A stretch of DNA of 12,822 nucleotides. Source: Nitrososphaeraceae archaeon (lineage in GTDB: Archaea; Thermoproteota; Nitrososphaeria; Nitrososphaerales; Nitrososphaeraceae). The notes below the pieces were generated by a model. It searched no databases, had not been told where the DNA came from, and worked only from the letters and a program-made list of their open reading frames with translations. How positions within the stretch are numbered: position 1 is the first letter of the stretch; each line of letters starts with the position of its first letter. Below are positions 26-12,392 of this stretch, piece after piece. The translations under genes were made by a program, and so were the position numbers. The stretch lies in the NCBI GenBank assembly GCA_044870765.1, contig JBIOZG010000010.1:1-12822 (forward strand). The letters run 5' to 3'.

Positions 26-150
26 TTACCCATTTTCAAATCCATTACAGGTACACTTCATGCAATAGTTTTTTCCGTGTTTATCAAAAAATGCATTCGT
101 TTAGCATGGTGACAGGCAACGCACTCATGCGATTTAAGTTCAGAGCTCAA
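26..150 (-). pseudogene. Frameshifted small Cys/His zinc-binding protein (CxxCxHxxxxH...CxxCxCxxF)
   Basis: Manual translation: TTG at 150 gives MSSELKSHECVACHHAKRMHF. A one-base shift in the A6 run at 86-91 continues as FDKHGKNYCMKCTCNGFENG* (stop 26-28). The span is 125 nt, one base short of 42 codons. Could be a homopolymer sequencing error. Confidence 0.6.
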
Positions 151-162
151 GTTACGAATCCG
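141..162 (+). repeat. Intergenic element, left-motif only (cagagctcaagttacgaatccg)
   Basis: Resembles cagaatcccaaattagaaccg at 4151-4171 and tagattcaaagttacggatt at 5419-5438. It lies 5 nt beyond the nitroreductase stop and overlaps the TTG start of the next gene. Confidence 0.45.
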
Positions 163-167
163 TTGCC

Positions 168-680
168 TTATCTCTGATTTGTATTACTGTATTTTTCATT
201 GTGAACAAGTACAGTTAGTGGAAGACGGTCTTTTCTCTTTCCTGTCAATTTCTTTAAAGGGTAACCAAATCCGATAACGGCAGCCACGTTCAATTCTTTT
301 GGAATTCCAAAATCTGGCCTGAATATCTGTTCCTTTATACCAGTAAATATTCCTGACCCTACGCCAAAATTCCATGCTGTCACCTGCATATTCTGTATTA
401 CCCTGCCCGCATCAATTAAATGGAAACCATACTTTGGATTTGTTAGAATTATTACAGCAAAATTACAGTTTGCAACCCAATTTCCGCTAGTGCTGTCTTC
501 TGCTAGCTTTTTCAGATTCTCTTTATTTTTAACTAAAATAAAACGCCAGTGTTGTGTATTAAGGCCAGTTCCTGTTAATCTGGCTGCTTCAAGTACGTTT
601 GATTTTATTTCAGGTGGAACTTGTTTTGGACTAAATTCTCGTATGTCGAGTTTAGTCGCTATAGATTCAAAAGCATCCAT
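168..680 (-). CDS. Nitroreductase family protein (FMN-binding)
   Basis: N-terminal pattern ...DIREFSPKQVPPE...VLEAARLTGTGLNTQHWRFILV, central DAGRVIQNMQVTAWNFGVGS, and C-terminal VIGFGYP...R are typical of the nitroreductase fold. 170 aa. Confidence 0.92.
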   Translation of the reverse strand: MDAFESIATKLDIREFSPKQVPPEIKSNVLEAARLTGTGLNTQHWRFILVKNKENLKKLAEDSTSGNWVANCNFAVIILTNPKYGFHLIDAGRVIQNMQVTAWNFGVGSGIFTGIKEQIFRPDFGIPKELNVAAVIGFGYPLKKLTGKRKDRLPLTVLVHNEKYSNTNQR

Positions 681-693
681 ACATCTTATACTG

Positions 694-709
694 TTTTAAT
701 ATATTAAAA
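694..709. promoter_or_regulatory. Perfect 16-bp AT-rich palindrome, probable TATA box/operator between divergent genes
   Basis: TTTTAATATATTAAAA lies 14-29 nt upstream of the nitroreductase ATG (680) in the 97-bp divergent gap. A second inverted repeat, CTTCTAA-N14-TTAGAAG, lies at 722-749. Confidence 0.5.
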
Positions 710-777
710 GGGGAAGCCAGTCTTCTAAGAACTCTAGCTTTATTAGAAGTTAGAGAGGATATATCTACGTCCAGTAA

Positions 778-1491
778 GTGAGATACTATATCAAGTGCAA
801 GCTAAATCCAAAAGCAAGGGAAAAGTTAGCAAATTCTATAAATTCGGGGAACTTAGCAAAGGGAAAAATATTTTATGAAGGAATGCAAGCTGCTTTGAGA
901 ACTGCAACTATAGATGAAACGGATACAGTTCATTTCATCGAGGCTTGCTATTGTCTAGAAGGAGGCCTCTATCCGATGGCAATGGAAATACCTACACTCA
1001 ATGAATACTTTGAATCTGTCGAGCAAGTAGCGGATGCCCGATTCAGAGAAAAATGCACAATGGAATGTGAAGCCTGCGATTGTACTCGGGCAATTAAACT
1101 TCCAGGAATGCAATTAGTAAAAAATCTGAATCTTGGAAGTAATGATACCGATAGAAAAGAAAATGATAAGATGGAGTTTATAGATTATGGAAGAGTTGAA
1201 TTAAGGAGACATAAACAAAGACAAGGTATTGATGCCCTCAGAAAAGTTGTAGATGAATGTCTATCATCAAAAATTAAACCAGTAAAGGCTGGTGCTGCAA
1301 TCTCAGGACTTTTTGCAATATTTCAAGACGATAACGGTGAATATTTCAGGATAAAGAATATTCCTGACACTAATGAAGCTCGTCATATTCTTAACAAGCT
1401 AGGACTGGATATACACGATTCTGTTGAAAGTGTTAAGGAAAATGCCAGATACTCTCTGGCGGCAAGCGATAGGTACTCCAACATAGTTTAG
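778..1491 (+). CDS. Hypothetical protein with Cys cluster (CxC ... CxxxCxxCxC), possible metal/Fe-S binding
   Basis: 237-aa ORF with GTG start. Motifs FIEACYC and KCTMECEACDCT. No family recognised with certainty. Confidence 0.8.
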   Translation: MRYYIKCKLNPKAREKLANSINSGNLAKGKIFYEGMQAALRTATIDETDTVHFIEACYCLEGGLYPMAMEIPTLNEYFESVEQVADARFREKCTMECEACDCTRAIKLPGMQLVKNLNLGSNDTDRKENDKMEFIDYGRVELRRHKQRQGIDALRKVVDECLSSKIKPVKAGAAISGLFAIFQDDNGEYFRIKNIPDTNEARHILNKLGLDIHDSVESVKENARYSLAASDRYSNIV

Positions 1492-1508
1492 GGCAAAGGA
1501 TAAAGAAC

Positions 1509-1646
1509 TCATCCATAAATTACATTAATCTTATCTATACTGGCGTTCCCGCAATATGGACAATAATTTGGATTAACACTGGTCGAAAGTCCTATTAATT
1601 GAAATTTGATTTTACACTGTTTACAGGAGAATGTACCAACTTTCAT
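1509..1646 (-). CDS. Small zinc-ribbon protein (45 aa), not in ORF track
   Basis: Manual translation MKVGTFSCKQCKIKFQLIGLSTSVNPNYCPYCGNASIDKINVIYG*. Two CxxC knuckles (CKQC, CPYCG) 17 residues apart. Confidence 0.75.
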   Translation of the reverse strand: MKVGTFSCKQCKIKFQLIGLSTSVNPNYCPYCGNASIDKINVIYG

Positions 1647-1820
1647 AGTCAGATTTAACAATGTAGCATTATTTGTTTGTCTTTGTCTTTGTCATTATAG
1701 TCCTAACGGCTTACTCTTAAATACTCTAGGAGAAGATGAAATGCCGCCTTTAATACCAGCAAGCCGAAAGATTACTCTAGGAACGGATATAAAGAGCCCT
1801 ATAGCAGTTGTTCGTTCCCA

Positions 1821-2030
1821 ATGATGGTCGATATAAATTCTGAATACGCAAGAGCAATGATACGGGATTTCATAAAAATACAAAAGGATATTTTGGGATT
1901 ACCAAACTTAACAACAAAGCAAAAAGACGATATAAACAGCTTGGGACATGAGTTAGGTACTTTAAGCTCACAAGCAGATGATGACAAAATAAAAACTGGC
2001 CTAATAGACATGATGAATAGACTTAATTAA
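1821..2030 (+). CDS. Hypothetical small helical protein (69 aa)
   Basis: Charged amphipathic composition. More protein-like than the overlapping antisense ORFs. Confidence 0.65.
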   Translation: MMVDINSEYARAMIRDFIKIQKDILGLPNLTTKQKDDINSLGHELGTLSSQADDDKIKTGLIDMMNRLN

Positions 2031-2045
2031 GAAGTTTCTCTGAAC

Positions 2046-2148
2046 TTAAAAGAAAACTTTTAGCTTCTAGTCCATTCTAATACCAAGAATCCTAATTTAG
2101 AACCGATAGCGTCGTGGGTACCGACAGCTGAAGATCTGAAGGTTTTAA
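2046..2148 (+). repeat. Intergenic element type A, copy 1
   Basis: The 29-bp stretch ttagaaccgatagcgtcgtgggtaccgac (2097-2125) is identical to 4163-4191. Shares the ttaaaagaaaact..agct left arm and gaaga..tga right end. The ends are imperfectly complementary (aaaacttttag/ctgaaggtttt). Confidence 0.9.
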
Positions 2149-2159
2149 TAAACACTTGC

Positions 2160-2750
2160 TTATATTAGTATAGATGGCATAAAGGTTATCATAAAGAGTA
2201 TTATTACTGCTACTGCACCGATTAGGAACGCTGGATATCCTAACAATTTGTTACGTGAAATTTCTGATACACCTCCCAATCCAGCAGCTATGATCAGGAG
2301 TATGGTTGTAAGTTCATACATTCCGATCTTCTTTGATATATCTGAAATATGATCTACAGATTGAAGAAATGATTCATGTTCGGATTCTGCTTTGTGCTTT
2401 AGATTTAACAATGAACCGTTGACTGTTACACTCCCTTCAAGATTTTCAAGATGAGATTTATACGTAGCAAAGTTATTCTCTATTTCAGTGACATTATTTT
2501 TAGTAAAGTTACCTTGAAGAGTAATATTCAGATTGTCAAGCTGAGCCTTCAGAATTCTTTCACCAATTTTTTCTTCGTTATAGTCATTTTCCCAATCCAT
2601 TGATTTCACAAAATGGGCAAGAGAAGTAATCTGCAAATCATCCTTTTCTAAGCCAAGTTCGGTTGCCAGAGTGGTTGTATATACTGCCAAAATCGATACG
2701 CCTATAATAAAGAAAGTGACAATTAAAAAAAATCCTGAGACTGAATGCAT
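2160..2750 (-). CDS. Membrane protein, DUF4337-like topology
   Basis: One N-terminal TM helix, a soluble coiled region starting near a W..Y..K motif, and two C-terminal TM helices (LLIIAAGLGGVSEI; YPAFLIGAVAVIILF). Family call is from pattern resemblance only. Confidence 0.6.
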   Translation of the reverse strand: MHSVSGFFLIVTFFIIGVSILAVYTTTLATELGLEKDDLQITSLAHFVKSMDWENDYNEEKIGERILKAQLDNLNITLQGNFTKNNVTEIENNFATYKSHLENLEGSVTVNGSLLNLKHKAESEHESFLQSVDHISDISKKIGMYELTTILLIIAAGLGGVSEISRNKLLGYPAFLIGAVAVIILFMITFMPSILI

Positions 2751-2808
2751 TTTTCTCCATTTAGTCTTGTCTCACATGTTTTTAAATCTGTTTATCAAGT
2801 CATACTCC

Positions 2809-2862
2809 TAGATTTTGGATCCGAACCGCTAACAACGTGGTTCCCTACGGCTATAGGCTTTG
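2809..2862 (+). repeat. Intergenic element type C, copy 1
   Basis: tttggatccgaaccgctaacaacgtggttccctacggct matches 6640-6678 at 29/39 and aligns ungapped with the type A core. Hairpin GAACC-N11-GGTTC. Confidence 0.8.
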
Positions 2863-2929
2863 CATAAATTTTTAACATCATCAAAATTATTCGGATTAAA
2901 TTTTAATACGAAGAGGGACAAGTGTATTA

Positions 2930-3448
2930 ATGGCATCTAATTCTAGTTCTGGCCATGATGTTAGACCTCCTTCTCTTACCCCATCCGAGATCGACAAAAT
3001 CCTTTCAATGACCCTCATTGCTAATTTGGCCACACTTGGCGAAGATGACACTATCCATATCGTTCCCATGTGGTTCATGCGATTTGGTAACGATATTTGT
3101 ATTCCCACTTCTCGACTTACTCGCAAATACAAGAACCTGAAAGCGAGGCCATACGCATCAGTGATGATAGATATTTCGCGAGAGGGATTAGACTTGAAAG
3201 GGGCATTGATTAGAGGCCCTGTAGAGCTCGTTGAAGGGGAAGAGGCAAGAAAGATCAACCACCAGATCCATTTGAAGTATGTGACAGAGGAGGGACTAAA
3301 TGATCCAAGCGTTGCATTGTATTTATCCAAAGGCGATGACGTAACTGTGAGAATACACATGGAACATATAGTTAATTGGAATCTAGCAGACTCTAAGGCG
3401 GGGAGAGCACTTAGAATAAAAGATCGTTCTCGACAACTAGATGCATAA
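2930..3448 (+). CDS. Pyridoxamine 5'-phosphate oxidase-like (split beta-barrel flavin/F420-binding) protein
   Basis: IANLATLGEDDTIHIVPMWF, TRKYKNLKARPYASVMID and GALIRG are characteristic PNPOx/FDOR-family motifs. Confidence 0.88.
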   Translation: MASNSSSGHDVRPPSLTPSEIDKILSMTLIANLATLGEDDTIHIVPMWFMRFGNDICIPTSRLTRKYKNLKARPYASVMIDISREGLDLKGALIRGPVELVEGEEARKINHQIHLKYVTEEGLNDPSVALYLSKGDDVTVRIHMEHIVNWNLADSKAGRALRIKDRSRQLDA

Positions 3449-3461
3449 AAAACGAATAAAC

Positions 3462-3572
3462 AGAAAGTAATAGAACCAGTATATGCAGGGTTCGAATCCC
3501 GATGAACTCTAAACGGTTAGAAAACTTTAAAGCTTTGTAGTGCTCTCTTATAGAAGAACATTCTTTTAGAAC
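3462..3572 (+). repeat. Composite intergenic element: type D (tRNA T-loop-like) plus degenerate type A left arm
   Basis: gaaagtaatagaacc..gttcgaatcccgatg matches 6286-6328. It is followed by gaaaactttaaagcttt..ttttagaac, which matches the type A left arm. The same D-then-A order occurs at 12143-12240. Confidence 0.7.
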
Positions 3573-3586
3573 ATAACGTATTAAAG

Positions 3587-4051
3587 TCAGTCGTTGTTGG
3601 TGTTATTCGCCTCAGCGAAGGTCATATTGTTGTCATCTAGGTCCGCAAGAATATCTGCTCGTTTTGAATCAGTTTGCTCTTGAAATTCTTGAAGGTTACT
3701 CGGATCTTCTAGAACGCCTCCCCGCTGTGGACCCGTTGTTTCACCTTCAGGTTTTATTGCTTGTTTGGCTGGATCTGTGCATTTTTCATAGGTGTTACCA
3801 TTGGCGTCCTTGTAGTTTTTGCACGTCTGGCACTTCGTTTCTCCGAGTATCTTTCCAGGAACTTGTTCACGCCAACAGCAAGTTTGTCCTCCCTTATCCC
3901 ATCTACTCCCAGTGCAATCCGTGGACGAATCATAATTACTGTCTCGTATTGCCGCACAGGCAATAGGTAAAAGAGGTCGGCCTGAAACAAATGGAACAAG
4001 CAGGACAAGTAGGACTCCTGTAGAAACGAAAAATACAAGCTCCCTATGCAT
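3587..4051 (-). CDS. Secreted Cys-rich hypothetical protein
   Basis: Hydrophobic N-terminal signal, then C..TCCW..CQTC..C core and acidic low-complexity tail. TATA-like ATATATTTAA about 30 nt upstream (4081-4090). Confidence 0.8.
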   Translation of the reverse strand: MHRELVFFVSTGVLLVLLVPFVSGRPLLPIACAAIRDSNYDSSTDCTGSRWDKGGQTCCWREQVPGKILGETKCQTCKNYKDANGNTYEKCTDPAKQAIKPEGETTGPQRGGVLEDPSNLQEFQEQTDSKRADILADLDDNNMTFAEANNTNND

Positions 4052-4110
4052 GATGTTTTTGTATTTGTCTTGAGATGTTATTAAATATATTGTGATCCAA
4101 GTGATACAAG

Positions 4111-4210
4111 TTAAAAGAAAAACTTAAAGCTCAGCACCCCTTATTCATATCAGAATCCCAAATTAGAACCGATAGCGTCGTGGGTACCGACGTCGGAAGA
4201 CTTGACTTAA
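4111..4210 (+). repeat. Intergenic element type A, copy 2
   Basis: 29-bp identity with 2097-2125. atatcagaatccca..ttagaaccgatagc is shared with 6107-6136. Contains the palindrome ccgacgtcgg (4187-4196). Confidence 0.9.
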
Positions 4211-4321
4211 ACAGAAGAGAAATGTATCGTACGGAGATTAAAGAAGAGATGACTGTTAGACAAGAAAATCAGATGTCTGAAGTCTACAGCGTCCTTCCAA
4301 TCAACATCTCTCATTGGCTAA

Positions 4322-4975
4322 CTAATTTTCAAACGACATTATGGCCTTTTCTTTCCCTACCAACAATTCACTACGAGGAATCTTGAGATGTTTCATTCGG
4401 ATACGAATATCAACGTATTGAGTAAACCCAACTTTAAACTTCATTAAATCTAACGAAAGACAAGAATCAACACAGCAACCCGCATCCGTCCTAAATGGCA
4501 CTTGCTCAATAAGTCTTCTTGACAGACGCGACAAAGCAAACCCTTGATGCAATACAGGAATTATGGCATTGGGATTTTTTACTTTCGATAGCAACGATTC
4601 AAACTGTGCTATCTTAAACCAACGGTAGCCTTCATATGTTGCAGTACGCGGCGGATCTGGGGGCAGGAAAGCCGAGATGTTAGTATCGATATTGGTATCA
4701 TCACGGCCGGTGTTATTGCACCAGCCAGATATGGAATCATATGACTCGTCATAATTTACTATTGCATCAACATCTTCTTGAGTCACAATAAGATCGTCGG
4801 GCAGGATCATAAAATGAGTAAAGTCGCTTTGCAGAAAGAACTCTCTTGCTTTGTTGTATGCTTCGTCTTGTGGAAAATATTTAATCCATAGTTTAGAGAT
4901 CCCGTTTATCTTTTCGATGGCCTTGTAAAACTCTGGGATACTACGCGGATTGAAGATTACTAATAAGGGCTTCAT
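4322..4975 (-). CDS. GT-A fold glycosyltransferase-like protein
   Basis: AYNKAREFFL..FTHFMILPDDLIV (acidic metal-binding position after a beta strand), ISGWCN, GFALSRLSR..IEQVPF, D..LS, YVD..I.MKH follow the GT2-like motif order. Confidence 0.65.
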   Translation of the reverse strand: MKPLLVIFNPRSIPEFYKAIEKINGISKLWIKYFPQDEAYNKAREFFLQSDFTHFMILPDDLIVTQEDVDAIVNYDESYDSISGWCNNTGRDDTNIDTNISAFLPPDPPRTATYEGYRWFKIAQFESLLSKVKNPNAIIPVLHQGFALSRLSRRLIEQVPFRTDAGCCVDSCLSLDLMKFKVGFTQYVDIRIRMKHLKIPRSELLVGKEKAIMSFEN

Positions 4976-5147
4976 TGCTATCGTCGCTAATATGTAGTTC
5001 AGTCAGGTAGTTATATACTATTTCTCGAGATTCGTCAACGGAGAACATTACATTAAAAACTAAATCATCATAAAGCTTTAAAATGGCTTCTTCTCTTGAC
5101 TTGGATTTAGTCATCCACCTAAAGTCTGGTAAGTTTAGTATTGTCAA
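4941..5147 (-). CDS. Hypothetical small protein overlapping the GT-like gene
   Basis: 68-aa ORF with TTG start (alternative ATG at 5114). Overlaps the downstream gene by 35 nt, suggesting coupling. Confidence 0.5.
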   Translation of the reverse strand: MTILNLPDFRWMTKSKSREEAILKLYDDLVFNVMFSVDESREIVYNYLTELHISDDSNEALISNLQSA

Positions 5148-5158
5148 TTTTTAAATTT

Positions 5159-5344
5159 TTAATAGTATTTTTTGTTAGTTACTTCAAATCCTTCAAATCC
5201 ATTCATCACCATCGAATGGTCTTCTTTTTTACAACAGTTGCAATGAAGTTTAAAGCAATCTCTACTTATCTTATGATTGCATTGCTTACAGGTGCAAATA
5301 CTATCAGAAAAATCCATTATCTTATGATGATTATCTGCGGTCAT
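5159..5344 (-). CDS. Small Cys/His-rich putative metal-binding protein
   Basis: CTCKQCNH..DC..HCNCC..DH. Seven Cys in 61 aa. Confidence 0.7.
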   Translation of the reverse strand: MTADNHHKIMDFSDSICTCKQCNHKISRDCFKLHCNCCKKEDHSMVMNGFEGFEVTNKKYY

Positions 5345-5418
5345 TTATGCTCATTAGTAGTGCACTATATTACATCTTTCGATATAGTTGTGCGTTCGTT
5401 CGGGTTTCTAAGATAACA

Positions 5419-5438
5419 TAGATTCAAAGTTACGGATT
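5419..5438 (+). repeat. Intergenic element, left-motif only
   Basis: tagattcaaagttacggatt resembles 141-162 and 12219-12240. Short and degenerate. Confidence 0.35.
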
Positions 5439-5463
5439 ATATGTCATAAAAACAATTTATGGT

Positions 5464-5964
5464 ATGGACAAAATAAATGAGGATGCTATCTTGCATTTTT
5501 ACAGGATATTGGAAAATTCGCTTCTTGAAAGTGATATATCCAAAATAAATGAAGAAGATATAGATGCTTGGTCGCAATCGTTCAAGAAAGTTGTGAGAGA
5601 AAGTAGAGAAAAGAGTGGTAAGGGAGTATTCGTCCCTTTTTTAATGTGGAAGTTGGGTGAGATAAGCCCTGTTGAGGCCAGCAAATACCTAGTCAATAGA
5701 AAACAGGATGAATGCCGGGTTAGTTATGATCATAATAAAGTTGAATATATACTCCGGGTGATGGCATTGATGTTTATGTCTTGGTCTGTTACAAATCTTA
5801 AACGAAAAACGCAAAACGGACATTGTCAGAATATCGATCATCCACATGGAGATACGAATCCCAGACTTTGTAAAGAAGGAACAATATTTCATCAAGAACT
5901 TTACAATGAATGTGTTAAAACTTTCAAAGATTTACTGATTCATTCAGATGCTCAACAGAATTAA
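5464..5964 (+). CDS. Hypothetical protein (166 aa)
   Basis: Long ORF with normal composition. C-terminal C..H.H..C..H..C could bind metal. No family recognised. Confidence 0.8.
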   Translation: MDKINEDAILHFYRILENSLLESDISKINEEDIDAWSQSFKKVVRESREKSGKGVFVPFLMWKLGEISPVEASKYLVNRKQDECRVSYDHNKVEYILRVMALMFMSWSVTNLKRKTQNGHCQNIDHPHGDTNPRLCKEGTIFHQELYNECVKTFKDLLIHSDAQQN

Positions 5965-6071: not shown

Positions 6072-6166
6072 TTAAAGAAAATTTAAAGATTAGCAGTTCG
6101 TAAAATATATCAGAATCCCATTTTAGAACCGATAGCCATGTGGAGCTCCATCCGGTAAGGAGCCTC
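6072..6166 (+). repeat. Intergenic element type A, copy 3
   Basis: ttaaagaaaatttaaagattagca..atatcagaatcccattttagaaccgatagc aligns with 4111-4176. The right part diverges into its own hairpin gctcc-N9-ggagc. Confidence 0.85.
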
Positions 6167-6284
6167 GATGATCTAAAGAAGGGAATACCGCAAGCCGTAG
6201 TCGAAGTAAACTCATACCGTGACTAAAAAATAATCATTCTGTCAGCATCCAATTTCTAATCGTTACTAAAAATAAAACTAAAAT

Positions 6285-6339
6285 AGAAGTTAGTAGAACC
6301 TACTCCATACAAAGTTCAAATCCCGATGTTGAAGACTAG
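6285..6339 (+). repeat. Intergenic element type D, copy 2
   Basis: gaagttagtagaacc..gttcaaatcccgatgttgaagactag. The left part matches 3462-3504 and the right end matches the ccgacg..gaagacttg end of types A and B. Ends 7 nt from the DUF1059 stop. Confidence 0.7.
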
Positions 6340-6346
6340 TCTATTA

Positions 6347-6535: not shown

Positions 6536-6639
6536 ACTTTACTTGCTAGTGGAGGCATGTATATATTTATTCTCTTTATACACTTATTAAGAAATCAAAA
6601 GCTATTGAGTTTCGACTAAATATCAACTATATCTTTCCG

Positions 6640-6688
6640 TTTGGATCCGAATTGTTGACAATATTAATCCTTACGGCTTAAGACCTGG
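6640..6688 (+). repeat. Intergenic element type C, copy 2
   Basis: 29/39 ungapped identity to 2814-2852, with 8 of the 10 differences being transitions. TCCGA-N17-TCCTTACG spacing is preserved. Confidence 0.75.
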
Positions 6689-6868
6689 AAGTATGATTGC
6701 TGATATACTGTGTCGAACTTAATTGGTTATGTGTAAAGACCGAGAGCCTGTAGAACATGGCGTTATTAAAAAAAGACAAACCTGTAGAGAATGATTTTGG
6801 CAGTCCGGCTGAGAATCAACTAAAAGAGGCATATGATTCTGTAGACACATCCGAAGACTAAACCTGCG

Positions 6869-6904
6869 ATCACATTATAGCATAAAATCACATTATAGCA
6901 TAAA
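6869..6904 (+). repeat. Perfect 18-bp tandem duplication (atcacattatagcataaa x2)
   Basis: Units at 6869-6886 and 6887-6904, about 30 nt upstream of the methyltransferase ATG. Confidence 0.9.
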
Positions 6905-6933
6905 ATAAAAGAGAGAACAAGCAATCCGTATCT

Positions 6934-7731
6934 ATGGATGAGTTTAATAAAAAAGCTATTGCAACGTGGTCTTCAGGAGATTACCGTAGTATAGCAACAT
7001 TTATTCCGCCTATATCGGCACATCTAGTACGACTAGTAAATATAAGTCCCGATAAATCTGTCCTTGATGTCGCCTGCGGAAATGGAAATACCGCCATCAC
7101 GGCTCGCAGAATGGGTGCACGAGTCACGGGGCTAGATTTGACACCAGAGCTCTTGGATCAGGCCGTTGAAGATGAAAAGATGGCAGAAATTGACGGTATT
7201 GATTGGAAGCAAGGAGACGCCGAAGACCTTCCTTTTGAAGATGAATCATTTGATATCGTTCTTTCAACTTTTGGACATATGTTCTCACCTCATCCAGAAG
7301 TATCCATTAAGGAAATTCTAAGAGTTACGAAGAAGGGTGGATCTATCGGGTTTGCAACTTGGCCTCCAGAACTTTCTGTGGGAAGCATGTTTCGTACTAT
7401 AGGTAAATATACATCAACTTCAGTTTCCAATCCACTACCTTCTCCAATGGAATGGGGTATCCCCGACGTAATCCGAAATCGACTTAACGGAGTCAACGGA
7501 ATTTATTTTGAGCGAGGTACAGTTAATGTCCCAATATTAAGTCCAAATCATTATTGGAATCACTTCAGTACAAAATATGGTCCATTAATGCAGGCTATTC
7601 GCGTAGTCAAAGAACAAGGTGAAGAAAAAATCGAACTATTGCGAAAAGATTTTCTGAATGCAATCAAGCCTTATATTTATGAAAACGATCTAAGAGTAGG
7701 TTACCTTCTTACAATTGGGGTAAAAGCATAG
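6934..7731 (+). CDS. Class I SAM-dependent methyltransferase (UbiE/Methyltransf_11-like)
   Basis: Motif I VLDVACGNG, VTGLD, GDAEDLPFEDESFDIVLS, EILRVTKKGG. Confidence 0.95.
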   Translation: MDEFNKKAIATWSSGDYRSIATFIPPISAHLVRLVNISPDKSVLDVACGNGNTAITARRMGARVTGLDLTPELLDQAVEDEKMAEIDGIDWKQGDAEDLPFEDESFDIVLSTFGHMFSPHPEVSIKEILRVTKKGGSIGFATWPPELSVGSMFRTIGKYTSTSVSNPLPSPMEWGIPDVIRNRLNGVNGIYFERGTVNVPILSPNHYWNHFSTKYGPLMQAIRVVKEQGEEKIELLRKDFLNAIKPYIYENDLRVGYLLTIGVKA

Positions 7732-7815
7732 TCGACTTCTAACTTGGCTAGTTCTTGATCAATACACTTCTTTACTATTGGCAAATGATGAAAAATCATT
7801 CAAGAAAACCCGAGG

Positions 7816-8077
7816 ACCTGTATCAAACAGTAATATACTGTTGTTATTTTTATATTTGATTTTTTTACCCTATTATTTTTTTCCTTCTTTTCTTCACTGT
7901 GTACTACAATATCTACAAGTGAGGAGAATCCATGTTCTGCAATTGGAAGAGGGGGTAAAAATTTTTCATTCGTCGTTAGCTCGGGTCTATTTGCATGAAT
8001 AGAGTTTGTTAGCAATAGGTCCGTGGAGTTATCCATTAGGATCGTAACAGATACTTATCAATTTCTTAGAGTGTCAT
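7816..8077 (-). pseudogene. Degraded 5' fragment of an MBL-fold metallo-hydrolase
   Basis: GGAG then ATG at 8077: MTL*EIDK, frameshift, VSVTILMDNSTDLLL..PIAEHGFSSLV, frameshift near the T-run at about 7860, SILLFDTG. ILxDN, AEHG.S and LFDTG are the N-terminal motifs of this MBL subfamily. The HxHxDH core is absent. Confidence 0.8.
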
Positions 8078-8191
8078 TTAATTCTCCTATACTTACGAAT
8101 TACTATGTTTTATCTATTCAATAAGCGAGGCAAAGTACAAGAGAAACTGATGTCTTCTACAACGGACATGCAGTTCACGCAATATCTAGCC

Positions 8192-8881
8192 TTATGGTCC
8201 TTTCCAAGTGTTTTCTGAAAAACTACCATATGTTCCTTCATATCGAAAGCTAAGATAGCCGTCATTTGCAACAAGTGCTTTCATAGATGCTTGGTCCATT
8301 CTAGTAGACTCAAAACCTTCAGGGATTTCAATTACTGCTCTATGTGCTTTACCAGTTACAGGATTTCGTATAGGTTCAAGCCATGCTTCAGCAATGACAC
8401 TTTTAAACTGTTCTCCTCTGATTCTTCGTTTTTTATCCTCACTCGTTCCCGACACACTGACACGACTTCTAATATCCTTAGTTTGAAACTTTACACTTGC
8501 TTTCTTGGGTTCTTGGATTTCTTCTATAATGCTTGCATACACAGCGAAAGGTCCTCCTCCTGCCCTACCCGTAATAATGTTTGATAACGCCTCAAACTGT
8601 TTTTCATCTGCCCTATTGTCTATATAATATGACGCTTTTCCATGACCTTCATGCAGTGGGCCCGGCCAGGAAGCTATCAATGCCATATTAAGTCCATCTA
8701 GTTTAACTTTAGTTCCATAACTACCAGTTATTATATGGTATCCGGCAATTCCTTCGCAATTACCATGAGTGGGATTTGCATTAAACTGACAGGGACACCC
8801 CCAGTCACAATTACACGCATCTAGAAAATATGCATGAACTTTCCAACTTAGTTTTTCTTGTTGCTGTGCTTTAGGTTTCAA
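8192..8881 (-). CDS. DUF1326 family protein (putative metal-binding)
   Basis: W...DACNCDWGCPCQF...PTHGNCEG, LDGL, WPGPLHEG, YIDNRADEKQ.EAL..I..G..GG match DUF1326. Confidence 0.88.
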   Translation of the reverse strand: MKPKAQQQEKLSWKVHAYFLDACNCDWGCPCQFNANPTHGNCEGIAGYHIITGSYGTKVKLDGLNMALIASWPGPLHEGHGKASYYIDNRADEKQFEALSNIITGRAGGGPFAVYASIIEEIQEPKKASVKFQTKDIRSRVSVSGTSEDKKRRIRGEQFKSVIAEAWLEPIRNPVTGKAHRAVIEIPEGFESTRMDQASMKALVANDGYLSFRYEGTYGSFSENTWKGP

Positions 8882-9248
8882 TGCTATCGAAATAATAATA
8901 TGACATATTTATGGATATTTGTCTTTCCTGTCCAGTCAGATTAAACATTAGGACAAATTAACTCTTTGCCAGCTTTCAATTGTAGAGGTATTTAGATTAT
9001 GACTATGTTAGGTACCGAAAAATAAAATTTAACTAGTTTAATTCCATACATTGCTAAGATGATGACATGAATTAACAGTTAATTATCTTTATCCATTATC
9101 GTTTTTTGCTGAAAATGATATTATCTTAATTTTATTTGGCAGTATACTGTAGATAACTTTACAAAAGCAATAACAGTCAAAATTGTCAGTAGTGTAAAAC
9201 GTTTTTTTAGCTTTATTATTTTTAAAATCCAATTAAGTATAGGAGATC

Positions 9249-9386
9249 ATGTATAAATTGATATTGCCAAGTAAGAAGTTGTTGTATGGATTTGGTTCAA
9301 GAAGAAAAGAAATGTTGGCCAAAAATTGGAATGCTGAGTCATTAATCCAAAAGCAAGATTTAACGAGTGTTGAAATTGAGGACTAA
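9249..9386 (+). CDS. Possible small protein (45 aa), not in ORF track
   Basis: AGGAG at 9241-9245 directly before ATG. MYKLILPSKKLLYGFGSRRKEMLAKNWNAESLIQKQDLTSVEIED*. The stop abuts atatcaga, a motif also seen in the type A elements. Confidence 0.4.
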   Translation: MYKLILPSKKLLYGFGSRRKEMLAKNWNAESLIQKQDLTSVEIED

Positions 9387-9412
9387 TATCAGACCATGGA
9401 GTTTTATGGGAG

Positions 9413-9456
9413 TTCCGACTGAATATTCAGCCGTATCCCTACGTCCGAACACTTGA
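9413..9456 (+). repeat. Intergenic element type B, copy 1
   Basis: 39/44 identical to 12349-12392. Perfect 12-bp palindrome ctgaatattcag. TCCGA-N17-TCCCTACG spacing as in type C. Confidence 0.9.
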
Positions 9457-9502
9457 TGACTTTTAATATTTTGGCCGAATGAACGTTATAGAAAATCTAA
9501 TT

Positions 9503-9949
9503 TTACTCTGGGATTTCAGGTTCAACTAGTTTTGCTAGATTATTCAATGATTGCTGCCAGCCTACATAGCACGCTTCAAGAGGGATGACAGTGGGCAAAC
9601 CTTCTTGTACAATGGTCATTTCTGTTCCTAGTGAAACCTTCTTCAAGGTTACAGTTACTTGAATTTCTCCCGATAAGTTTGGGTCATCAAAATTATCCGT
9701 ATAACGTAAGCGTTCGTTTTCAACCAGCTCACGGTATTCTCCACCAAATGACATGGTCTTTTGAGTGGTAAAGTTTGTAAAAGACATCTTGTAGGTTCCT
9801 CCTACCTTTGCATCCATGTGTTGAACACTACAAGTATAACCATTGGGTGGTAACCATTTAGCCATGGCATCACGGTCAAGAAAAGCACGATAAATTTTCT
9901 CGGGCTTTGCTGTAAGTACACGATGTAAATGAACAGTGTTAGTAGACAT
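9503..9949 (-). CDS. SRPBCC (AHSA1/CalC-like) ligand-binding domain protein
   Basis: LHRVL.A.PEKIYRAF.D..AMAKWLPP, D.KVGG.YKMSF, FGGEY.ELV..ERLRYT, GW..SL..LA. Confidence 0.93.
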   Translation of the reverse strand: MSTNTVHLHRVLTAKPEKIYRAFLDRDAMAKWLPPNGYTCSVQHMDAKVGGTYKMSFTNFTTQKTMSFGGEYRELVENERLRYTDNFDDPNLSGEIQVTVTLKKVSLGTEMTIVQEGLPTVIPLEACYVGWQQSLNNLAKLVEPEIPE

Positions 9950-10401
9950 AGGCTTCTTACTGCAATATACTATTAAAATATTCTGTGCCTATTGGGTTTT
10001 GATAACTAGACCTAAATCAGATACTGATAATCTCTTGATCTATGGAATATTTCCACTTTTGCATTCCCTTGTTAGGTTTCCCATTTTCCTTAGGACAAGT
10101 CCTTTTCTAGGGACTAATTTCCTCTTAATACTTTACGCCTATCAAGACTCTGAACATGGGATTCACATTGTAAACAAATTAAATCGCTTCGGAAGTTATC
10201 CAACCGTTTTTCATCATTATTTTTCGGTTCTGAAAATTAATTCAAAGGAAACCTTTCCACTGATAGTATTGAATATGACTCTAGCGATATTATAATGATT
10301 AAATCACTGGATTACCCGAATTGTTATAATTGAGAACACTAGCTGATAAATCATAAAATCACATCAGGAGATCTTGTATATCCAGACATGTAAGAATTCA
10401 T

Positions 10402-11205
10402 ATGAAAAAATTTTCTTTGTTATCGTGGAATGTAGAACATTTTAGATTAAGTTCAAAGGATGTGCCAGGGATTATTTCACATATACAAAAATTTGATCCA
10501 GATGTTATGGCCATATATGAAGTAGAAGGAAAAGACGTGTATAGTCACATGGTCACTTCTTTTCCTCAATACACGTTTTCAATTACTGAAGGTCGTCAGA
10601 CTCAAGAAATACTTGTGGGAGTCCGCGGAGGTTTTACAGCTTTCTTTACTCAACTCGTAGAATTCAAGAGTGGTAACACTTTCTTAAGGCCCGGCTTGTT
10701 ACTTAGTCTGCGAATAATTAATGAAGATTATACAATATTATTTTTGCATACAAAGAGTGCCTCTAGGCCAATTGGACTTGGAATAAGAGATGATCAATTC
10801 TATCATGCATTTAATTTAAAGAAAAAATTAGATGAAATTGCAGGAGGATTCAATAAATCAAAATTCATTGTGGTTGGAGATCTTAACACGATGGGAATGG
10901 TCTATCCGTTCGATAAAGGCATTGATTATAAGATTGAACTTCAGAAATTAGAAAAAGATTCACAGAAGGTTGGTATGAGATTTTTGATCAAAAATTATGA
11001 GAAAACTTGGACAGACGGAGCACGATTTAGCAACTTAGATCATGTACTGGCTAGTTCAAATTTAGATTTCACGAAATGGGATTCGGACATTGAAGCAAAA
11101 GTTTCGGGTTGGAAGGAGTTGCATGAAAATAATAATGTAGTTGAATTTACACACTTCTACAAACAAATTTCTGATCACAATTCAGTTTATTTTGAAGTAC
11201 ACTGA
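10402..11205 (+). CDS. Endonuclease/exonuclease/phosphatase (EEP, DNase I-like) family protein
   Basis: All canonical motifs are present: SWNVE, PDV.AIYEV, LHTKS, VVGDLN, LDHVL and terminal SDH. Confidence 0.92.
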   Translation: MKKFSLLSWNVEHFRLSSKDVPGIISHIQKFDPDVMAIYEVEGKDVYSHMVTSFPQYTFSITEGRQTQEILVGVRGGFTAFFTQLVEFKSGNTFLRPGLLLSLRIINEDYTILFLHTKSASRPIGLGIRDDQFYHAFNLKKKLDEIAGGFNKSKFIVVGDLNTMGMVYPFDKGIDYKIELQKLEKDSQKVGMRFLIKNYEKTWTDGARFSNLDHVLASSNLDFTKWDSDIEAKVSGWKELHENNNVVEFTHFYKQISDHNSVYFEVH

Positions 11206-11407
11206 CTCTTCTGTCTAACAATAGAGAACCCGTACTACTATAAAGATTCACAATGTAAACAATGTCAATGAATTAATCCGGTTAGGTAACGACAGAGCCT
11301 GTATAGAGGCTTTCTTTTTAGGAATTAATTCATATAAAAAAGCATGCGACAAGATACGTGAAAGTTAAAAATGAAAGTCTGAATTAAATGAGGTGTCCGA
11401 GAGTTAG

Positions 11408-11433
11408 GGAACCAAATACTAGTATCAGATTCC
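11408..11433. repeat. Imperfect 26-bp palindrome, possible inverted/degenerate member of the element family
   Basis: ggaaccaaatactagtatcagattcc (10 of 13 pairs). The minus strand reads ..ggttcccta.., as in the type C copy at 2839-2847. Confidence 0.4.
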
Positions 11434-11488
11434 GAATTTTTTGATTTATCATTTAATTACTTATTTATATTACTAGATAAGTAGTAAA

Positions 11489-12118
11489 ATGTCTAATAAA
11501 CCCAAAAAACAGTTAGGTGGATACTTAGCATATGCTTTATTATTGACAACAGCGTCCTTGACAGTTTTATTATTACACGAACAGACTGTCTGGGCCGACA
11601 TCATTCATTGCTCAGGAACTTCTATATGTAACGGAACTTCAGATGATGACATAATGTTCGGAGCCGGTTCTGTTACCATAATCCATGGATTAGGAGGTAA
11701 TGATATTATTACAGGTCAGGGACCCGGAGGAGACTACATCTATGGCGATGAAGGTAACGATATTTTATATGGATCAGAATTTAACGATTATCTAAACGGT
11801 GGATTAGGTAATGACCTTTATGACGGATGGTATGGCGATGATACCATCATCGATGAATCGTGGGCCGTAAATCCTTTTGCATCTAACGTGGACGTCGTAT
11901 CAGGTGGCTTCGGAAATGACTACATAACTACTGGTTTCGGAATAGATAAAATTCATGGTGGCCCCGGCGATGATCTTATCACTCCCAATGGATATCTGCG
12001 TGATTTTTCTCGTGATATGGTAGACTGCGGTTCTGGTGCAAACGATCGCGTAGGAATTTGGTCGGGAGATAGTGATAGTGCTATTAATTGTGAACAGCCT
12101 GACAATTGGGATCGCTAA
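11489..12118 (+). CDS. Secreted hemolysin-type (RTX) calcium-binding repeat protein
   Basis: Signal peptide ending VWA. Repeated GxGGND/GDEGND/GGLGND/GGFGND/GGPGDD nonapeptides. Terminal Cys pairs (CSGTSIC; DCG..NCE). Confidence 0.9.
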   Translation: MSNKPKKQLGGYLAYALLLTTASLTVLLLHEQTVWADIIHCSGTSICNGTSDDDIMFGAGSVTIIHGLGGNDIITGQGPGGDYIYGDEGNDILYGSEFNDYLNGGLGNDLYDGWYGDDTIIDESWAVNPFASNVDVVSGGFGNDYITTGFGIDKIHGGPGDDLITPNGYLRDFSRDMVDCGSGANDRVGIWSGDSDSAINCEQPDNWDR

Positions 12119-12142
12119 ATCTGGTAATCTCATACTACTGTT

Positions 12143-12275
12143 GGGTTTGAATCCTGTGCCTTCTATAGGATAGTAGACTGGCAAAACTATCAGCTTCGTA
12201 ATTCTCTCCAAGAAAAACTAGAATTTCTAATTACGACCCGTCTGAAATTCCAGATTTGTCCCTTCCGACCCACGT
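12143..12275 (+). repeat. Composite intergenic element: type D-like plus type A left arm plus hairpin
   Basis: gggtttgaatcctgtgccttctataggatag resembles gggttcgaatcccgatgaactctaaacggttag (3488-3520). Then aaaactatcagcttcgtaattctctc..agaatttctaattacgacccg, followed by hairpin tctgaaattccaga. Confidence 0.6.
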
Positions 12276-12348
12276 AAAAATACAATCCTTTATACATTAG
12301 ATAACGTTTCACTACTTATAGAATTTAAGTTCAATTTGATACGGGCAC

Positions 12349-12392
12349 TTCCGACTGAATATTCAGTTGTATCCCGACGTTCGAAGACTTGA
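12349..12392 (+). repeat. Intergenic element type B, copy 2
   Basis: 39/44 identical to 9413-9456. The right end ccgacgttcgaagacttga matches type A copy 2 (ccgacgtcggaagacttga). Confidence 0.9.

Follow-up and report, generated by a model that had tools for sequence, protein, structure and literature searches.

Probable attachment-type recombination sites of a tRNA-targeting integrase system in an accessory gene island of a Nitrososphaeraceae archaeon

The window, i.e., the whole stretch of DNA that was analysed (12,822 nucleotides), represents one whole contig of the 2.0-Mb genome of a Nitrososphaeraceae archaeon, hereafter G000. Its cargo genes span positions 168 to 12118 in mixed orientation, the open reading frame (ORF) list containing seven genes on the plus strand and 11 on the minus strand. 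A Pfam scan identified a nitroreductase (168-680, minus), a DUF4337 protein (2160-2750, minus), a PNPOx protein (2930-3448, plus), a DUF1059 protein (6347-6535, minus), an SAM methyltransferase (6934-7731, plus), a DUF1326 protein (8192-8881, minus), an AHSA1/SRPBCC protein (9503-9949, minus), an Exo_endo_phos protein (10402-11205, plus), and an RTX-repeat protein (11489-12118, plus). The ORF list further comprised two plus-strand ORFs without family (778-1491 and 1821-2030), a third plus-strand ORF (5464-5964), and minus-strand ORFs at 3587-4051, 4322-4975, 4941-5147, 5159-5344, and 7800-8036. Every cargo unit of the window recurs alone in other genomes. Indeed, the genes between the repeats described below are unrelated accessory units that move between species, as a preliminary description of this DNA had supposed.

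That description listed 13 related, co-oriented elements at gene boundaries. Iterated nhmmer searches of G000 retrieved 41 site matches in four related families, namely A (18 copies), D (13), B (7), and C (3). These were found in islands only and were confined to 9 of the 59 contigs, with 9, 9, 6, 5, 4, 3, 3, 1, and 1 sites per contig. Orientation was uniform within each site-bearing contig, and none of the 41 sites was overlapped by an ORF of at least 100 aa, versus 69% of the genome lying under such ORFs. The genome-wide profile scan proposed earlier thus bore out both the co-orientation and the position at gene boundaries, although co-orientation is not absolute in relatives, as G010 carries two A matches on the opposite strand. 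Of the 13 listed positions, nine fall within these families, two (3520 and 12143-12275) were confirmed in part, and two (141 and 5419) were unmatched by any model. The pairwise identities reported for them hold, amounting to 54 nt at 87% (2086/4152), 56 nt at 82% (9408/12344), and 29 of 39 nt (2814/6640). A 29-mer of family A is nearly invariant across species, occurring with at most three mismatches in 19 of the 24 genomes of the genus, including the unpublished G020; the site pattern is likewise present in 19 of the 24 genomes, as well as in runs of independent studies. In families A and D, a conserved TATA-like box lies some 22-25 nt ahead of the conserved stretch.

A single 8-bp core, T[AC]CCGACG, is common to all four families and has its break point at CCGAC|G. 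The motif C[CT][GTA]A[CGT] anchors 35 of the 41 copies; it is preceded by T and then by A or C (in 31 and 35 of the 35, respectively) and followed by G in 28. Consequently, the second half of the frame proposed in the preliminary description, T(C/A)C(C/T)(G/T)AR, corresponds to the common core, and a GAAGACTTGA-like right arm follows about a dozen of the 41 copies, as counted from the site listing.

All sites of the window lie on the plus strand. Site A1 (2053..2140; nhmmer 64.6 bits, model match 2053-2125) has a left arm consisting of the TATA-like box and a 45-nt conserved stretch, a core at 2119-2126, and a short right arm (2127-2140) that is part of the next unit. Blocks shared with G012 and G053 begin at 2121 and 2118, the same right arm following a B-type arm in G012 and another hairpin in G053, and soil metagenomes of other studies contain loose ends at 2124/2125. 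Site A2 (4119..4212; 66.3 bits, model match 4119-4192) combines an A-type arm, a core (4185-4192), and a GAAGACTTGA right arm. Its core is joined to the right arm of site C1 in a soil metagenome (4192 to 9441), and loose ends occur before 4150/4152 and behind 4192. Site A3 (6078..6136; 49.5 bits, model match 6078-6143) is an A-type arm cut off before the core and followed by a remnant of the 3' end of a gene (6137-6240); the break at 6136/6137 was found in G007, G053, and G002, and also as a loose end continuing into a normal A arm. Site D1 (3461..3504; 42.2 bits) has an arm ending in a 15-nt copy of the T-loop/T-stem region of tRNA-Lys and travels with the upstream PNPOx gene; blocks shared with G053 and G041 stop at 3502 and with G005 at 3524, with different sequence behind each. 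Back to back with D1, as in three D+A pairs on contigs C43 and C54, alignment revealed a degenerate A copy, A' (3516..3590). This element, listed earlier at 3520, retains the box and the arm start of A, but its core is missing. It shares a 19-nt identity with C43:100816, and at the corresponding place G012 carries an intact variant site that includes a core. Site D2 (6283..6341; 41.4 bits, model match 6283-6328) has a core at 6320-6327 and a GAAGAC-type right arm that is part of the DUF1059 unit. A block at 6137-6328 stops at this core, and the DUF1059 block of G010 (contig C9) begins right behind the core of an A-type site. Site B1 (2811..2853; 38.6 bits) is an imperfect palindrome followed by the core variant CCTACG, with a block end at 2849. 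Similarly, site B2 (6638..6679; 37.1 bits) has a palindromic arm and the core variant CTTACG; its left half moves with the DUF1059 unit, blocks ending at 6659-6662 in G010, G005, and G021. Site C1 (9408..9465; 64.0 bits) contains an inner hairpin in its arm and the core variant CCCTACG (9437-9443). Its right arm is part of the SRPBCC unit, and a G053 block begins at 9441 behind a B-type arm. Finally, site C2 (12344..12401; 61.3 bits) has a canonical core (12372-12379) and a GAAGACTTGA right arm.

Further plus-strand elements lie in the window. Element F (12143..12272) ends in a core-like CCGAC..ACG, at which blocks of G043 and G046 stop (12272 and 12268), and has weak relatives on C12 and C36. 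A cryptic site absent from the earlier list (7785..7815) consists of a short hairpin followed by CCCGAGG, with blocks of G016, G012, G021, and G003 ending or starting at 7809-7813; it belongs to no model family. Half a hairpin with a weak right-arm-like stretch behind it (10090..10160), at the distal end of the SRPBCC unit, is probably a decayed site; in G053 the same left half forms a full hairpin with CCCGAC behind it and leads into the A1 right arm, and three runs show loose ends before 10160. The listed element at 141..175 has no nhmmer or BLAST relative and could be a decayed site; one soil run has a loose end at 152, and blocks start nearby at 177-190. The one at 5419..5441, with block starts at 5421-5426 in five genomes, including the unpublished G045, probably marks no more than the point upstream of the gene at 5464-5964 where its conservation ends.

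A tRNA-Lys(UUU) gene (C43:64720-64818) carries the identical 8 bases of the core at its T-stem/acceptor junction. It scored 58 bits against the Rfam tRNA model and is intron-bearing, with a 24-nt insertion after CUUUUA. Synteny between C43 of G000 and C22 of G010 reaches the last base of this gene and ends there, and co-oriented sites come next in both. Sites of types A, B, C, or D have the 3' end of the tRNA gene (core plus GGGCCCG) as their right arm on G000:C36, G016:C85, G010:C9, G010:C6, G041:C130, and G055:C12. Most right arms lack this acceptor end, which counts against the explanation favoured below, as such units could not enter the tRNA gene without breaking it. In the part of PMC6563490 that deals with them, thaumarchaeal att sites measure down to 8 bp and lie mostly within tRNA genes. 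Furthermore, each family is conserved in sequence, the A and D alignments yielded no consensus fold (RNAalifold), no stem showed a compensatory base change in the fold and covariation analysis of the families, and the attC boxes RYYYAAC/GTTRRRY were absent from the alignments. The repeats therefore do not match the earlier picture of structure-conserved but sequence-variable, attC-like folded sites; they appear to be of the att type, with a core copying part of the tRNA-Lys gene.

The view that these are recombination sites was strengthened, as shared blocks break at one fixed core and one right arm can follow left arms of type A, B, D, or others. Within G000, for instance, one downstream flank lies behind an A arm on C52 and C53 and behind a D arm on C43. 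In the synteny-breakpoint check suggested in the preliminary description, 7 of the 39 clusters of block ends fell on the 10 cores (binomial P ~3e-5), or 6 of 39 without the site at 7785..7815, which was defined post hoc from block ends. The other 32 clusters lie away from any recognised core, which counts against the favoured explanation, several of them being limits of gene conservation or deletions (e.g., 708-720, 6136/6137, and 8976-8994). The same holds for the unit 4213-5122, which begins 21-36 nt past the core in three contexts. All genomes compared are metagenome bins, and some joins at repeats could be assembly chimeras. The units have been exchanged between species recently: those of the window are 90-98% identical across species, versus 69-80% for the flank upstream of the tRNA gene, the single core flank used for this comparison (G053, 95 versus 76%; G043, 97 versus 77%; G010, 95 versus 77%; G003, 94 versus 69%).

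No recombinase is encoded in the window, as noted before. The search for a linked one revealed a tyrosine integrase directly after the tRNA-Lys gene in two relatives, G021 and G050 (ORFs of 424 aa and 391 aa, beginning 9-47 nt past the tRNA 3' end), but neither an integrase nor a fragment of one was present in 282 kb of arrays, nor a Y1 transposase in the G000 genome. The G050 protein scored 21.9 bits against PF00589, below the cut-off, and its G000 paralogues 46 and 38 bits. Of 26 upstream regions examined, 21 have a gene or gene fragment of this integrase subfamily just downstream of the 3' end of a tRNA gene, and four had no integrase match. Integrases are joined to A or D arms elsewhere, in attP-like junctions on G000:C24 (D arm, core, tRNA end, and integrase fragment) and G008:C2 (A arm, core, tRNA end, and integrase pseudogene) and in three further A-arm junctions on soil contigs. 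An inverted copy of the A-arm motif occurs at a fixed offset in 9 of 30 right arms of such junctions. None of the PF00589 matches of G000 is on an island contig. G000 itself contains only N-terminal fragments of the tRNA-Lys subfamily and no intact member; two integrase paralogues lie on other contigs with no A-D site nearby. Also, 19 of 20 flanks around integrase genes related to the G016 copy lack an A-D site, and only 3 of the 28 A-arm/tRNA-end sites on metagenome contigs have a detectable integrase behind them. These points, too, count against the explanation favoured below. The linked enzymes form a family of ordinary tyrosine integrases that target tRNA genes.

Taken together, the repeats are probably attachment-type sites recombined by a tyrosine integrase system that targets tRNA genes, in a tRNA-Lys-anchored accretion island of small cargo units without integrase. 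In each site, a left arm of 40-75 nt specific to its family (A, B, C, D, and some singletons) would be followed by the 8-bp core and a short right arm. Strand exchange would occur at or next to the core, so that the left arm stays with the upstream unit and the right arm with the downstream one. The window would belong to a large island whose starting point is the 3' end of the tRNA-Lys gene and which grew by many site-specific insertions, most of them cargo units of 0.2-3 kb that carry one or two accessory genes but lack an integrase. These sites may be recombined by the tRNA-Lys integrase subfamily; the integrase-less units would have been moved in trans, as opposed to being decay products, perhaps singly, as cassettes that are excised and re-inserted, and the TATA-like box of the A and D arms may read across the core. 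Counting against this explanation, neither circular forms nor excision products nor any activity came to light.

Alternatively, the arrays could be debris of full-size integrase-bearing elements (proviruses, plasmids) that serially entered the tRNA-Lys gene and were then stripped of their integrase and of most genes, in which case the small units would never have moved by themselves. For archaea, PMC6563490 and PMC8371274 describe tandem insertions into a single site as well as subsequent loss of the integrase gene. Also, integrase fragments adjoin tRNA genes in G000, the window contains truncated sites and remnants of genes (e.g., A', A3, and 10090-10160), and several right arms keep the integrase-upstream region with no integrase behind it. 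However, each integration adds one site, and about 19 plus-strand sites in 41 kb (G010:C22) leave only about 2 kb for each event, not enough for an integrase gene of 1.1-1.3 kb plus cargo. Moreover, the arrays are devoid of integrase fragments, and the same one-gene unit with its own arms recurs in varying orders and genomes at the high identity given above. Such an origin is considered unlikely. It is very improbable that the elements are small non-coding RNA genes, or regulatory RNA or DNA signals, with a merely secondary position at block boundaries. This would fit the conserved box, the near-invariant A 29-mer, and RNA-library contigs that span the A1 and A2 arms, the latter being no proof of transcription. 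Yet, Rfam gave no match at E up to 1, so that the elements correspond to no ncRNA described there, a possibility that had been raised against them; a consensus fold and compensatory changes are lacking, conservation ends at a core that also occurs in a tRNA and at integrase junctions, and the elements are restricted to islands. Hardly any weight can be given to self-mobile miniature elements (MITE- or REP-like) independent of gene movement, or to assembly artefacts at repeats. Although the copies are short, intergenic, and repeated, and all genomes are bins, the family alignments show one-sided conservation ending at the core, with neither terminal inverted repeats nor target duplications. In addition, a Y1 transposase is missing, identical right flanks stand behind different left arms, and the pattern recurs in 19 of the 24 genomes of the genus and in runs of independent studies. 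Least credible of all, and already doubted in the preliminary description, is a classical integron or attC cluster (CALIN) served by an IntI-type integrase, which could account for co-oriented sites separating short units with typically cassette-like cargo, canonical integrons being reported in archaeal bins in the relevant part of 10.1101/2022.02.06.479319, but not for a break at CCGAC|G, the lack of attC boxes and structure covariation, genes in both directions, and PF00589 matches off the island contigs.

The integron-analogous system proposed earlier thus stands as to recombination sites and mobile units, but not as to the nature of the sites and of the integrase family. The island resembles an integron in function, as an array of small swappable gene units, whereas its machinery differs and is att-site-like; attC boxes, compensatory base changes, and uniform gene orientation are all absent. 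Since the core copies part of the tRNA-Lys gene and the linked enzyme would be a tRNA-targeting tyrosine integrase, the known model that comes closest is serial integration into a tRNA gene. This soil ammonia-oxidising archaeon harbours a large, fast-changing island that the sites cut into small swappable gene units.

The repeats of the window are quite probably att-type sites served by the tRNA-Lys-specific branch of a tyrosine integrase family that targets tRNA genes, the window being part of a many-insertion island. Such an island would have grown through many insertions at tRNA-Lys, in the way known from other tRNA genes at which elements integrate in tandem; She et al. are said to have described gene capture at archaeal tRNA genes in 2001. 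The genome scan proposed in the preliminary description, performed with iterated nhmmer models seeded from the window copies only, returned 41 matches in the host bin G000 (2.0 Mb, 59 contigs, 36% G+C; completeness 96.65%). These belong to the families A (18 matches), D (13), B (7), and C (3) and were confined to nine of the 59 contigs, namely the window itself (C10, a complete contig of 12,822 bp), C43 (67-101 kb), C49, C52, C53, C54, C36, C21, and C4. All sites of a contig had a single orientation, and none of the 41 lay under an ORF of at least 100 aa, although such ORFs cover 69% of the genome, so that the clustering, co-orientation per contig, and intergenic position of the copies were borne out. 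Nine of the 13 repeat positions listed earlier are family members, 3520 is a degenerate A copy, and 12143-12275 has weak relatives only, while those at 141 and 5419 were not confirmed. The site-bearing stretches of G000 sum to at least ~110 kb (~5% of the genome) and presumably form one island. Among the relatives within the genus, co-orientation was strong but not absolute, two A matches in genome G010 lying on the opposite strand; the array on its contig C22 is dense, with 19 plus-strand sites in ~41 kb. A 29-mer of family A (at most three mismatches) occurred in 19 of 24 genomes of the genus (one being the unpublished G020) and in none of 16 genomes from other genera of the order. The exact degenerate pattern of the commonest repeat occurred in 44 stretches of a species-representative genome collection, all but one in records of Nitrososphaeraceae, Nitrososphaeria/Nitrososphaerales, Thaumarchaeota, or Thermoproteota, the remaining one being labelled 'bacterium'; the A pattern had no match in viral contigs. 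Furthermore, soil and rhizosphere metagenomes of many studies contain DNA nearly identical to the window.

Every family terminates in an 8-bp core, T[AC]CCGACG with at most one base changed. The left arm of A consists of a TATA-like box, ~20 variable bases, and ~45 conserved bases, and that of D of a similar box and a 40-nt arm; the B arm is an imperfect palindrome and the C arm contains a short hairpin. Conservation mostly ends right of the core, which is followed by a GAAGACTTGA-like stretch in about a dozen copies and by other short arms in others. The bare core is not enriched: counting both strands, the genome contains 51 copies where base composition predicts ~39, and 13 of the 51 belong to A-D sites; the sites are defined by their arms, not by the bare core. 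Inverted repeats are present in all arm families, and the preliminary description had drawn a parallel to attC sites, which are variable in sequence and conserved in structure. Yet no compensatory change was found in any stem among the distinct copies in all DNA in hand (A, 101; B, 44; C, 17; D, 62), neither A nor D yielded a consensus fold in RNAalifold, and the window had no Rfam match at E values up to 1, which also disposes of a known RNA family, C/D-box RNAs included. Therefore, these are sequence families with a common core, and that parallel was not borne out.

The core corresponds to the T-stem/acceptor junction of a tRNA gene at C43:64720-64818 (Rfam tRNA, 58 bits), and some D copies match this tRNA over 15-17 nt. 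The gene has a 24-nt insertion after CUUUUA and was read as an intron-bearing tRNA-Lys(UUU), although ARAGORN places the intron elsewhere and calls Glu or 'Stop'. The site-bearing part of C43 begins 2.6 kb downstream of the tRNA gene; the sites of this contig and those of G010:C22 are on the tRNA strand. When these two contigs were aligned, 6.8 kb of shared genes ran up to the final tRNA base, where the alignment stopped; in G010, too, a co-oriented array comes next. Hence, a variable region starts at the tRNA 3' end, and co-oriented direct repeats of part of the tRNA (the 8-bp core in all families, 15-17 nt in some D copies) bound the inserts. The tRNA-Lys gene was detected in 16 of 40 genomes of the genus (two of them unpublished), and the sequence after it varies between genomes (11 flanks compared). 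In addition, sites with the tRNA acceptor end as right arm (core + GGGCCCG) were found within or at the end of arrays, which is an attR layout. This right arm occurred with A-type (G000:C36 and G016:C85), B-type (G010:C9), C-type (G041:C130), and D-type (G010:C6) left arms, and with a singleton arm in G055:C12, where it bounds 3.2 kb that are inserted relative to its relatives and contain no integrase. The start of the 4213-5122 unit (window 4213-4250) resembles the sequence right after tRNA-Lys in G010:C22; what originally adjoined the tRNA gene on the chromosome is a possible ancestor of this unit.

Several other features were observed near the tRNA gene. The first ORF past it (C43:64833-65339, minus strand; L031:6833-7339 in the extract of this contig) encodes 168 aa with HTH_23/HTH_28/HTH_7-type matches and could be an N-terminal piece of a transposase or a directionality factor. 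A segment of ~570 nt upstream of the tRNA region (C43:58283-58852; L031:283-852) occurs in multiple copies, with 83-90% identity, in the larger genomes of the genus, its second copy in G000 being the start of C57 (C57:1-565). Elsewhere, on C5, the intron mode of ARAGORN proposed two tRNA-Lys(ttt) genes.

Comparison of the window with 40 genomes of the genus split it into separately recurring blocks. Block ends fell on the cores at 2118/2121, 2849, 3502, 6328, 9441, and 12268/12272, and a pile of block ends at 7809-7813 exposed a site that had not been listed before. The preliminary description had proposed to look for breakpoints at a fixed position of the element; this held for 7 of 39 end clusters, each of which coincided with one of 10 cores (binomial P ~3e-5; 6 of 39 without the post-hoc site), but not for the other 32, some of which are deletions, such as the cut in A3 at 6136. 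The 4213 unit, which begins 21-36 nt past the core in three contexts, also counts against a break at the core. Base-level alignment revealed exchanged arms. Indeed, the right arm of A1 together with the DUF4337 gene lies behind a B-type arm in G012 and behind another hairpin in G053. Similarly, the right arm of C1 and the SRPBCC gene lie behind a B-type arm in G053, the DUF1059 unit is found behind D2 in the window and behind an A site in G010, and one and the same flank within G000 is preceded by an A arm on C52 and C53 but by a D arm on C43. The downstream arm stays with its unit, as seen for PNPOx with D in five genomes and for DUF1059 with B in four. Unit order differs too, the SRPBCC unit being joined straight to the DUF4337-PNPOx units in G053 and DUF1059 to the 4213-5027 unit in G010:C9. 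In soil metagenome contigs from other studies, the A2 core was joined to the right arm of C1, loose ends lay at 2124/2125 and 4192, and further joints occurred away from known cores. Among public-run contigs, one joint that goes back from 8928 to 6347 was ambiguous. Contigs of two RNA-library runs (X15 and X16) extend over parts of the window and end at cores, although such contigs cannot show transcription, ends, or strand. The proposal that the elements are recombination sites and that the genes behave as cassettes is upheld by blocks breaking at cores, swapped arms, and differing unit order.

The cargo of the window consists of unrelated accessory genes in both orientations (7 ORFs on the plus and 11 on the minus strand, according to the ORF list and Pfam scans). 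It encompasses a nitroreductase, DUF4337, PNPOx, DUF1059, a SAM methyltransferase, DUF1326, AHSA1/SRPBCC, Exo_endo_phos, an RTX-repeat protein, and a luciferase-domain (PF17648) fragment, besides several ORFs without a Pfam family. This fragment is the last unit of the window (12595-12822) and a frequent one, located 39 nt past the tRNA-Lys gene in G016 (G016:C1:31062-31299) and also present in G010:C22, G021:C177, and G014. Between B2 and the methyltransferase block, the region 6680-6900 looks like a tiny unit or a scar; a 34-codon ORF at 6757-6861 ends in the right-arm-like motif TCCGAAGAC and is followed by a direct 18-nt tandem repeat (~6871-6905). The units are shared between distant genomes at 90-98% identity. 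The 6.7-kb flank upstream of the tRNA gene is 73-80% identical to most genomes of the genus, 93% to G012, 92% to the unpublished G020, and 88-91% to G016. Window units and core flank show identities of 95% and 76%, respectively, in G053, 97% and 77% in G043, 95% and 77% in G010, 94% and 69% in G003, and 92% and 71% in G051, a comparison that relies on one core region and in which the gap is large and consistent. The units have moved between species recently.

Concerning the enzyme, G000 has three PF00589 matches, on C11, C59, and C29, none of them on a site-bearing contig, and 282 kb of arrays, taken from four genomes, contained no integrase homologue. Clustering of 268 array ORFs revealed no recurrent array gene or hidden recombinase, the largest family having seven members and the scanned families being ordinary enzymes and sensor kinases. 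The sole serine recombinase of G000 (Resolvase family, 110 bits; C5:134944-135384) lies on a contig without sites. The candidate enzyme comes from relatives. In G021 and G050, ORFs of 424 and 391 aa begin 9-47 nt past the tRNA-Lys 3' end, on the tRNA strand; they share 44% identity and are 27-37% identical to the integrases of G000. The G050 protein scores 21.9 bits against PF00589, which is below the cut-off, compared with 46 and 38 bits for integrases of G000. Among 26 upstream regions of this integrase subfamily, 21 had the gene or a fragment just 3' of a tRNA gene (Met, Val, Pro, Ile, Ser, Arg, or Lys) and four had no integrase match. In G008:C2, an A arm, the core, the tRNA-Lys end, and an integrase pseudogene follow each other; in G000:C24, a D-like arm, the core, and the tRNA-Lys end precede a fragment 68% identical to the G050 integrase. 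Each has the layout of an attP or of a junction inside a tandem array, and these layouts tie the A and D arms to this subfamily. A 17-mer scan of metagenome contigs gave many chance matches in GC-rich DNA, and 46 of the 80 loci listed, having no A arm by nhmmer, were excluded. At least 34 sites with an A arm and the tRNA end were obtained, 28 of which had at least 300 nt downstream; among the matches listed, an integrase followed in three of these 28 and others retained only the stretch upstream of the integrase. Again among the matches listed, an inverted A-arm motif occurred in the right arm of 9 of 30, at a fixed offset of 9-10 nt, as paired binding sites around a crossover would look. Consequently, the linked tyrosine recombinase that the preliminary description had suggested looking for exists next to the target and the element-side arm in relatives (G021, G050, G008:C2, and three metagenome contigs), whereas G000 has fragments only and the 282 kb of arrays have none. 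An integrase of a different branch lies 1.2 kb from an A/tRNA-end site in G016:C85, but it is a weak lead, as 19 of 20 flanks around its relatives had no A-D site; the subfamily whose genes directly follow tRNA genes is the better fit. A core within the integrase frame, as in the SSV-type split integrase, was rejected too: a near-core 7-mer in the 5' part of the C11 gene is absent from the C59 and G016 genes and is attributable to chance.

Integrase remnants and tRNA fragments were also noticed elsewhere in G000. N-terminal integrase fragments lie right after the genes for tRNA-Pro(GGG), tRNA-Met, and tRNA-Arg(GCG) (C11:24732-25244, C41:10-363, and C43:11496-11780), only N-terminal pieces having survived. 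A second copy of the final 29 codons of the C11 integrase lies ~700 bp downstream, with 76% identity (C11:52555-52641), which would be expected if the att site of the element overlaps the 3' end of the integrase gene. 3'-terminal pieces of other tRNAs (Thr, Ser, Arg, Glu, and Pro-like) occur outside tRNA genes (C2:31644-35204, C36:16556-16583, C41:1548-1575, and C4:3907 and 18297), the four on C2 being co-oriented and near an N-terminal integrase fragment (C2:41105-41386). G000 probably has further tRNA-anchored islands.

Known tandem (accretion) islands at tRNA or tmRNA genes include the tycheposon islands of Prochlorococcus (10.1101/2020.12.28.424599), the cis-mobilizable elements of streptococcal ICEs, and the ssrA islands of Dehalococcoides (PMC5704250, PMC3146451). 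As far as the accessible text of these reports goes, the likeness comprises the start at a tRNA 3' end, co-oriented partial tRNA copies scattered inside, tyrosine integrases beside the tRNA in some genomes, cargo mostly without mobility genes, and high variability among close relatives. The comparison with tycheposons covers the island model. Against the islands as portrayed there, the present locus is unusual in its grain, with far smaller and denser units of one or two genes and about one site per 1-2 kb; in a shared tRNA part of just 8 bp in most sites, with at least four conserved arm families coexisting as its partners; in arrays that hold no integrase or fragment of one in 282 kb; in units shuffled and traded across species; and in its host, a soil Nitrososphaeraceae archaeon. 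For integrated elements of Thaumarchaeota, the available parts of two publications (PMC6563490, PMC8371274) mention very short att sites (8 bp upward), tandem arrays, the targeting of tRNA 3' parts, intron-bearing genes included, and integrase loss. The elements covered there are discrete, several kb or more in size, and carry mobility genes, unlike the units found here; in those parts, arrays of dozens of integrase-less single-gene units are undescribed and archaeal integron counterparts are called unknown. No such arrays are described for Nitrososphaeraceae in the accessible portion of the literature, although the thaumarchaeal target table of PMC6563490 may list tRNA-Lys insertions.

A more far-reaching reading, tentative and less probable than att-site integration as such, is that of a true archaeal integron analogue made from different parts, in which integrase-less single-gene units are mobilised like cassettes. 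Each insertion adds one site; therefore, such small units cannot all have contained an integrase, and movement in trans would be the simplest account. Units would be excised as circles and reinserted by a tRNA-Lys-specific tyrosine integrase acting in trans, any site with the 8-bp core would accept an insertion, and the tRNA gene would stand in for attI and the four arm families A-D for attC, resulting in a ~100-kb 'super-array' that trades cassettes among the species of a genus of soil ammonia oxidisers. The likeness to integrons, sedentary chromosomal 'super-integrons' included, lies in long arrays of one-gene accessory units with co-oriented sites between them, an own site arm at one end of each unit, a fixed break point, shuffled order and interspecies exchange, arrays often without an integrase (as in CALINs), and a single entry point, the tRNA gene being comparable to attI. 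The integron-like interpretation proposed earlier is supported in part, namely for recombination sites and cassette-like genes; the sites do not resemble attC, however, and probably work by att-site integration into a tRNA gene.

Membership of the classical integrons fails all sequence tests made. attC sites have paired R and L boxes (RYYYAAC ... GTTRRRY), with the crossover in the R' box. Here, no such boxes were present in the alignments or consensus, the break falls between CCGAC and G, and there was no sign of a folded-strand substrate, the families being conserved in sequence instead of structure. No IntI-type integrase with an attI was found beside the arrays (282 kb from four genomes), the candidate enzyme being a tRNA-targeting integrase. 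In addition, genes of the window are not mostly co-oriented with the sites; as they face both ways, there is no common promoter for the array, unlike in integrons. The preliminary description had already denied a classical integron, pointing to missing R boxes and mixed gene orientation, and was right on both points. Published archaeal integrons use canonical attC sites, and Nitrososphaeria are unmentioned in the accessible part of that report (10.1101/2022.02.06.479319). tRNA pseudogenes and split or permuted tRNAs were rejected, as ARAGORN found no tRNA gene in the window, D copies lose T-stem pairing, and only the 8-17 nt att part is tRNA-like. Finally, MITE or REP repeats were dismissed, since conservation is one-sided and ends at the core, the alignments contained no terminal inverted repeats or target-site duplication, and the Y1 (RAYT) transposase PF01797 was not found in G000 at its 96.65% completeness.

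Soil Nitrososphaeraceae are major ammonia oxidisers, and, to our knowledge, little is understood of how accessory genes enter and leave their genomes. The locus offers a concrete, sequence-searchable route for such gain and loss, in which one tRNA gene is the entry point (hot spot), a handful of recognisable site families delimit small units, and these units are far more alike across species than the surrounding core genome. If movement in trans is true, integron-like trading of cassettes would have had an independent origin in ordinary tRNA att sites, which would bear on the possible origin of integrons and their cassettes. In that case, site-anchored PCR on metagenomes could also give direct access to the flexible genes of uncultured archaea, in the manner of attC primers.
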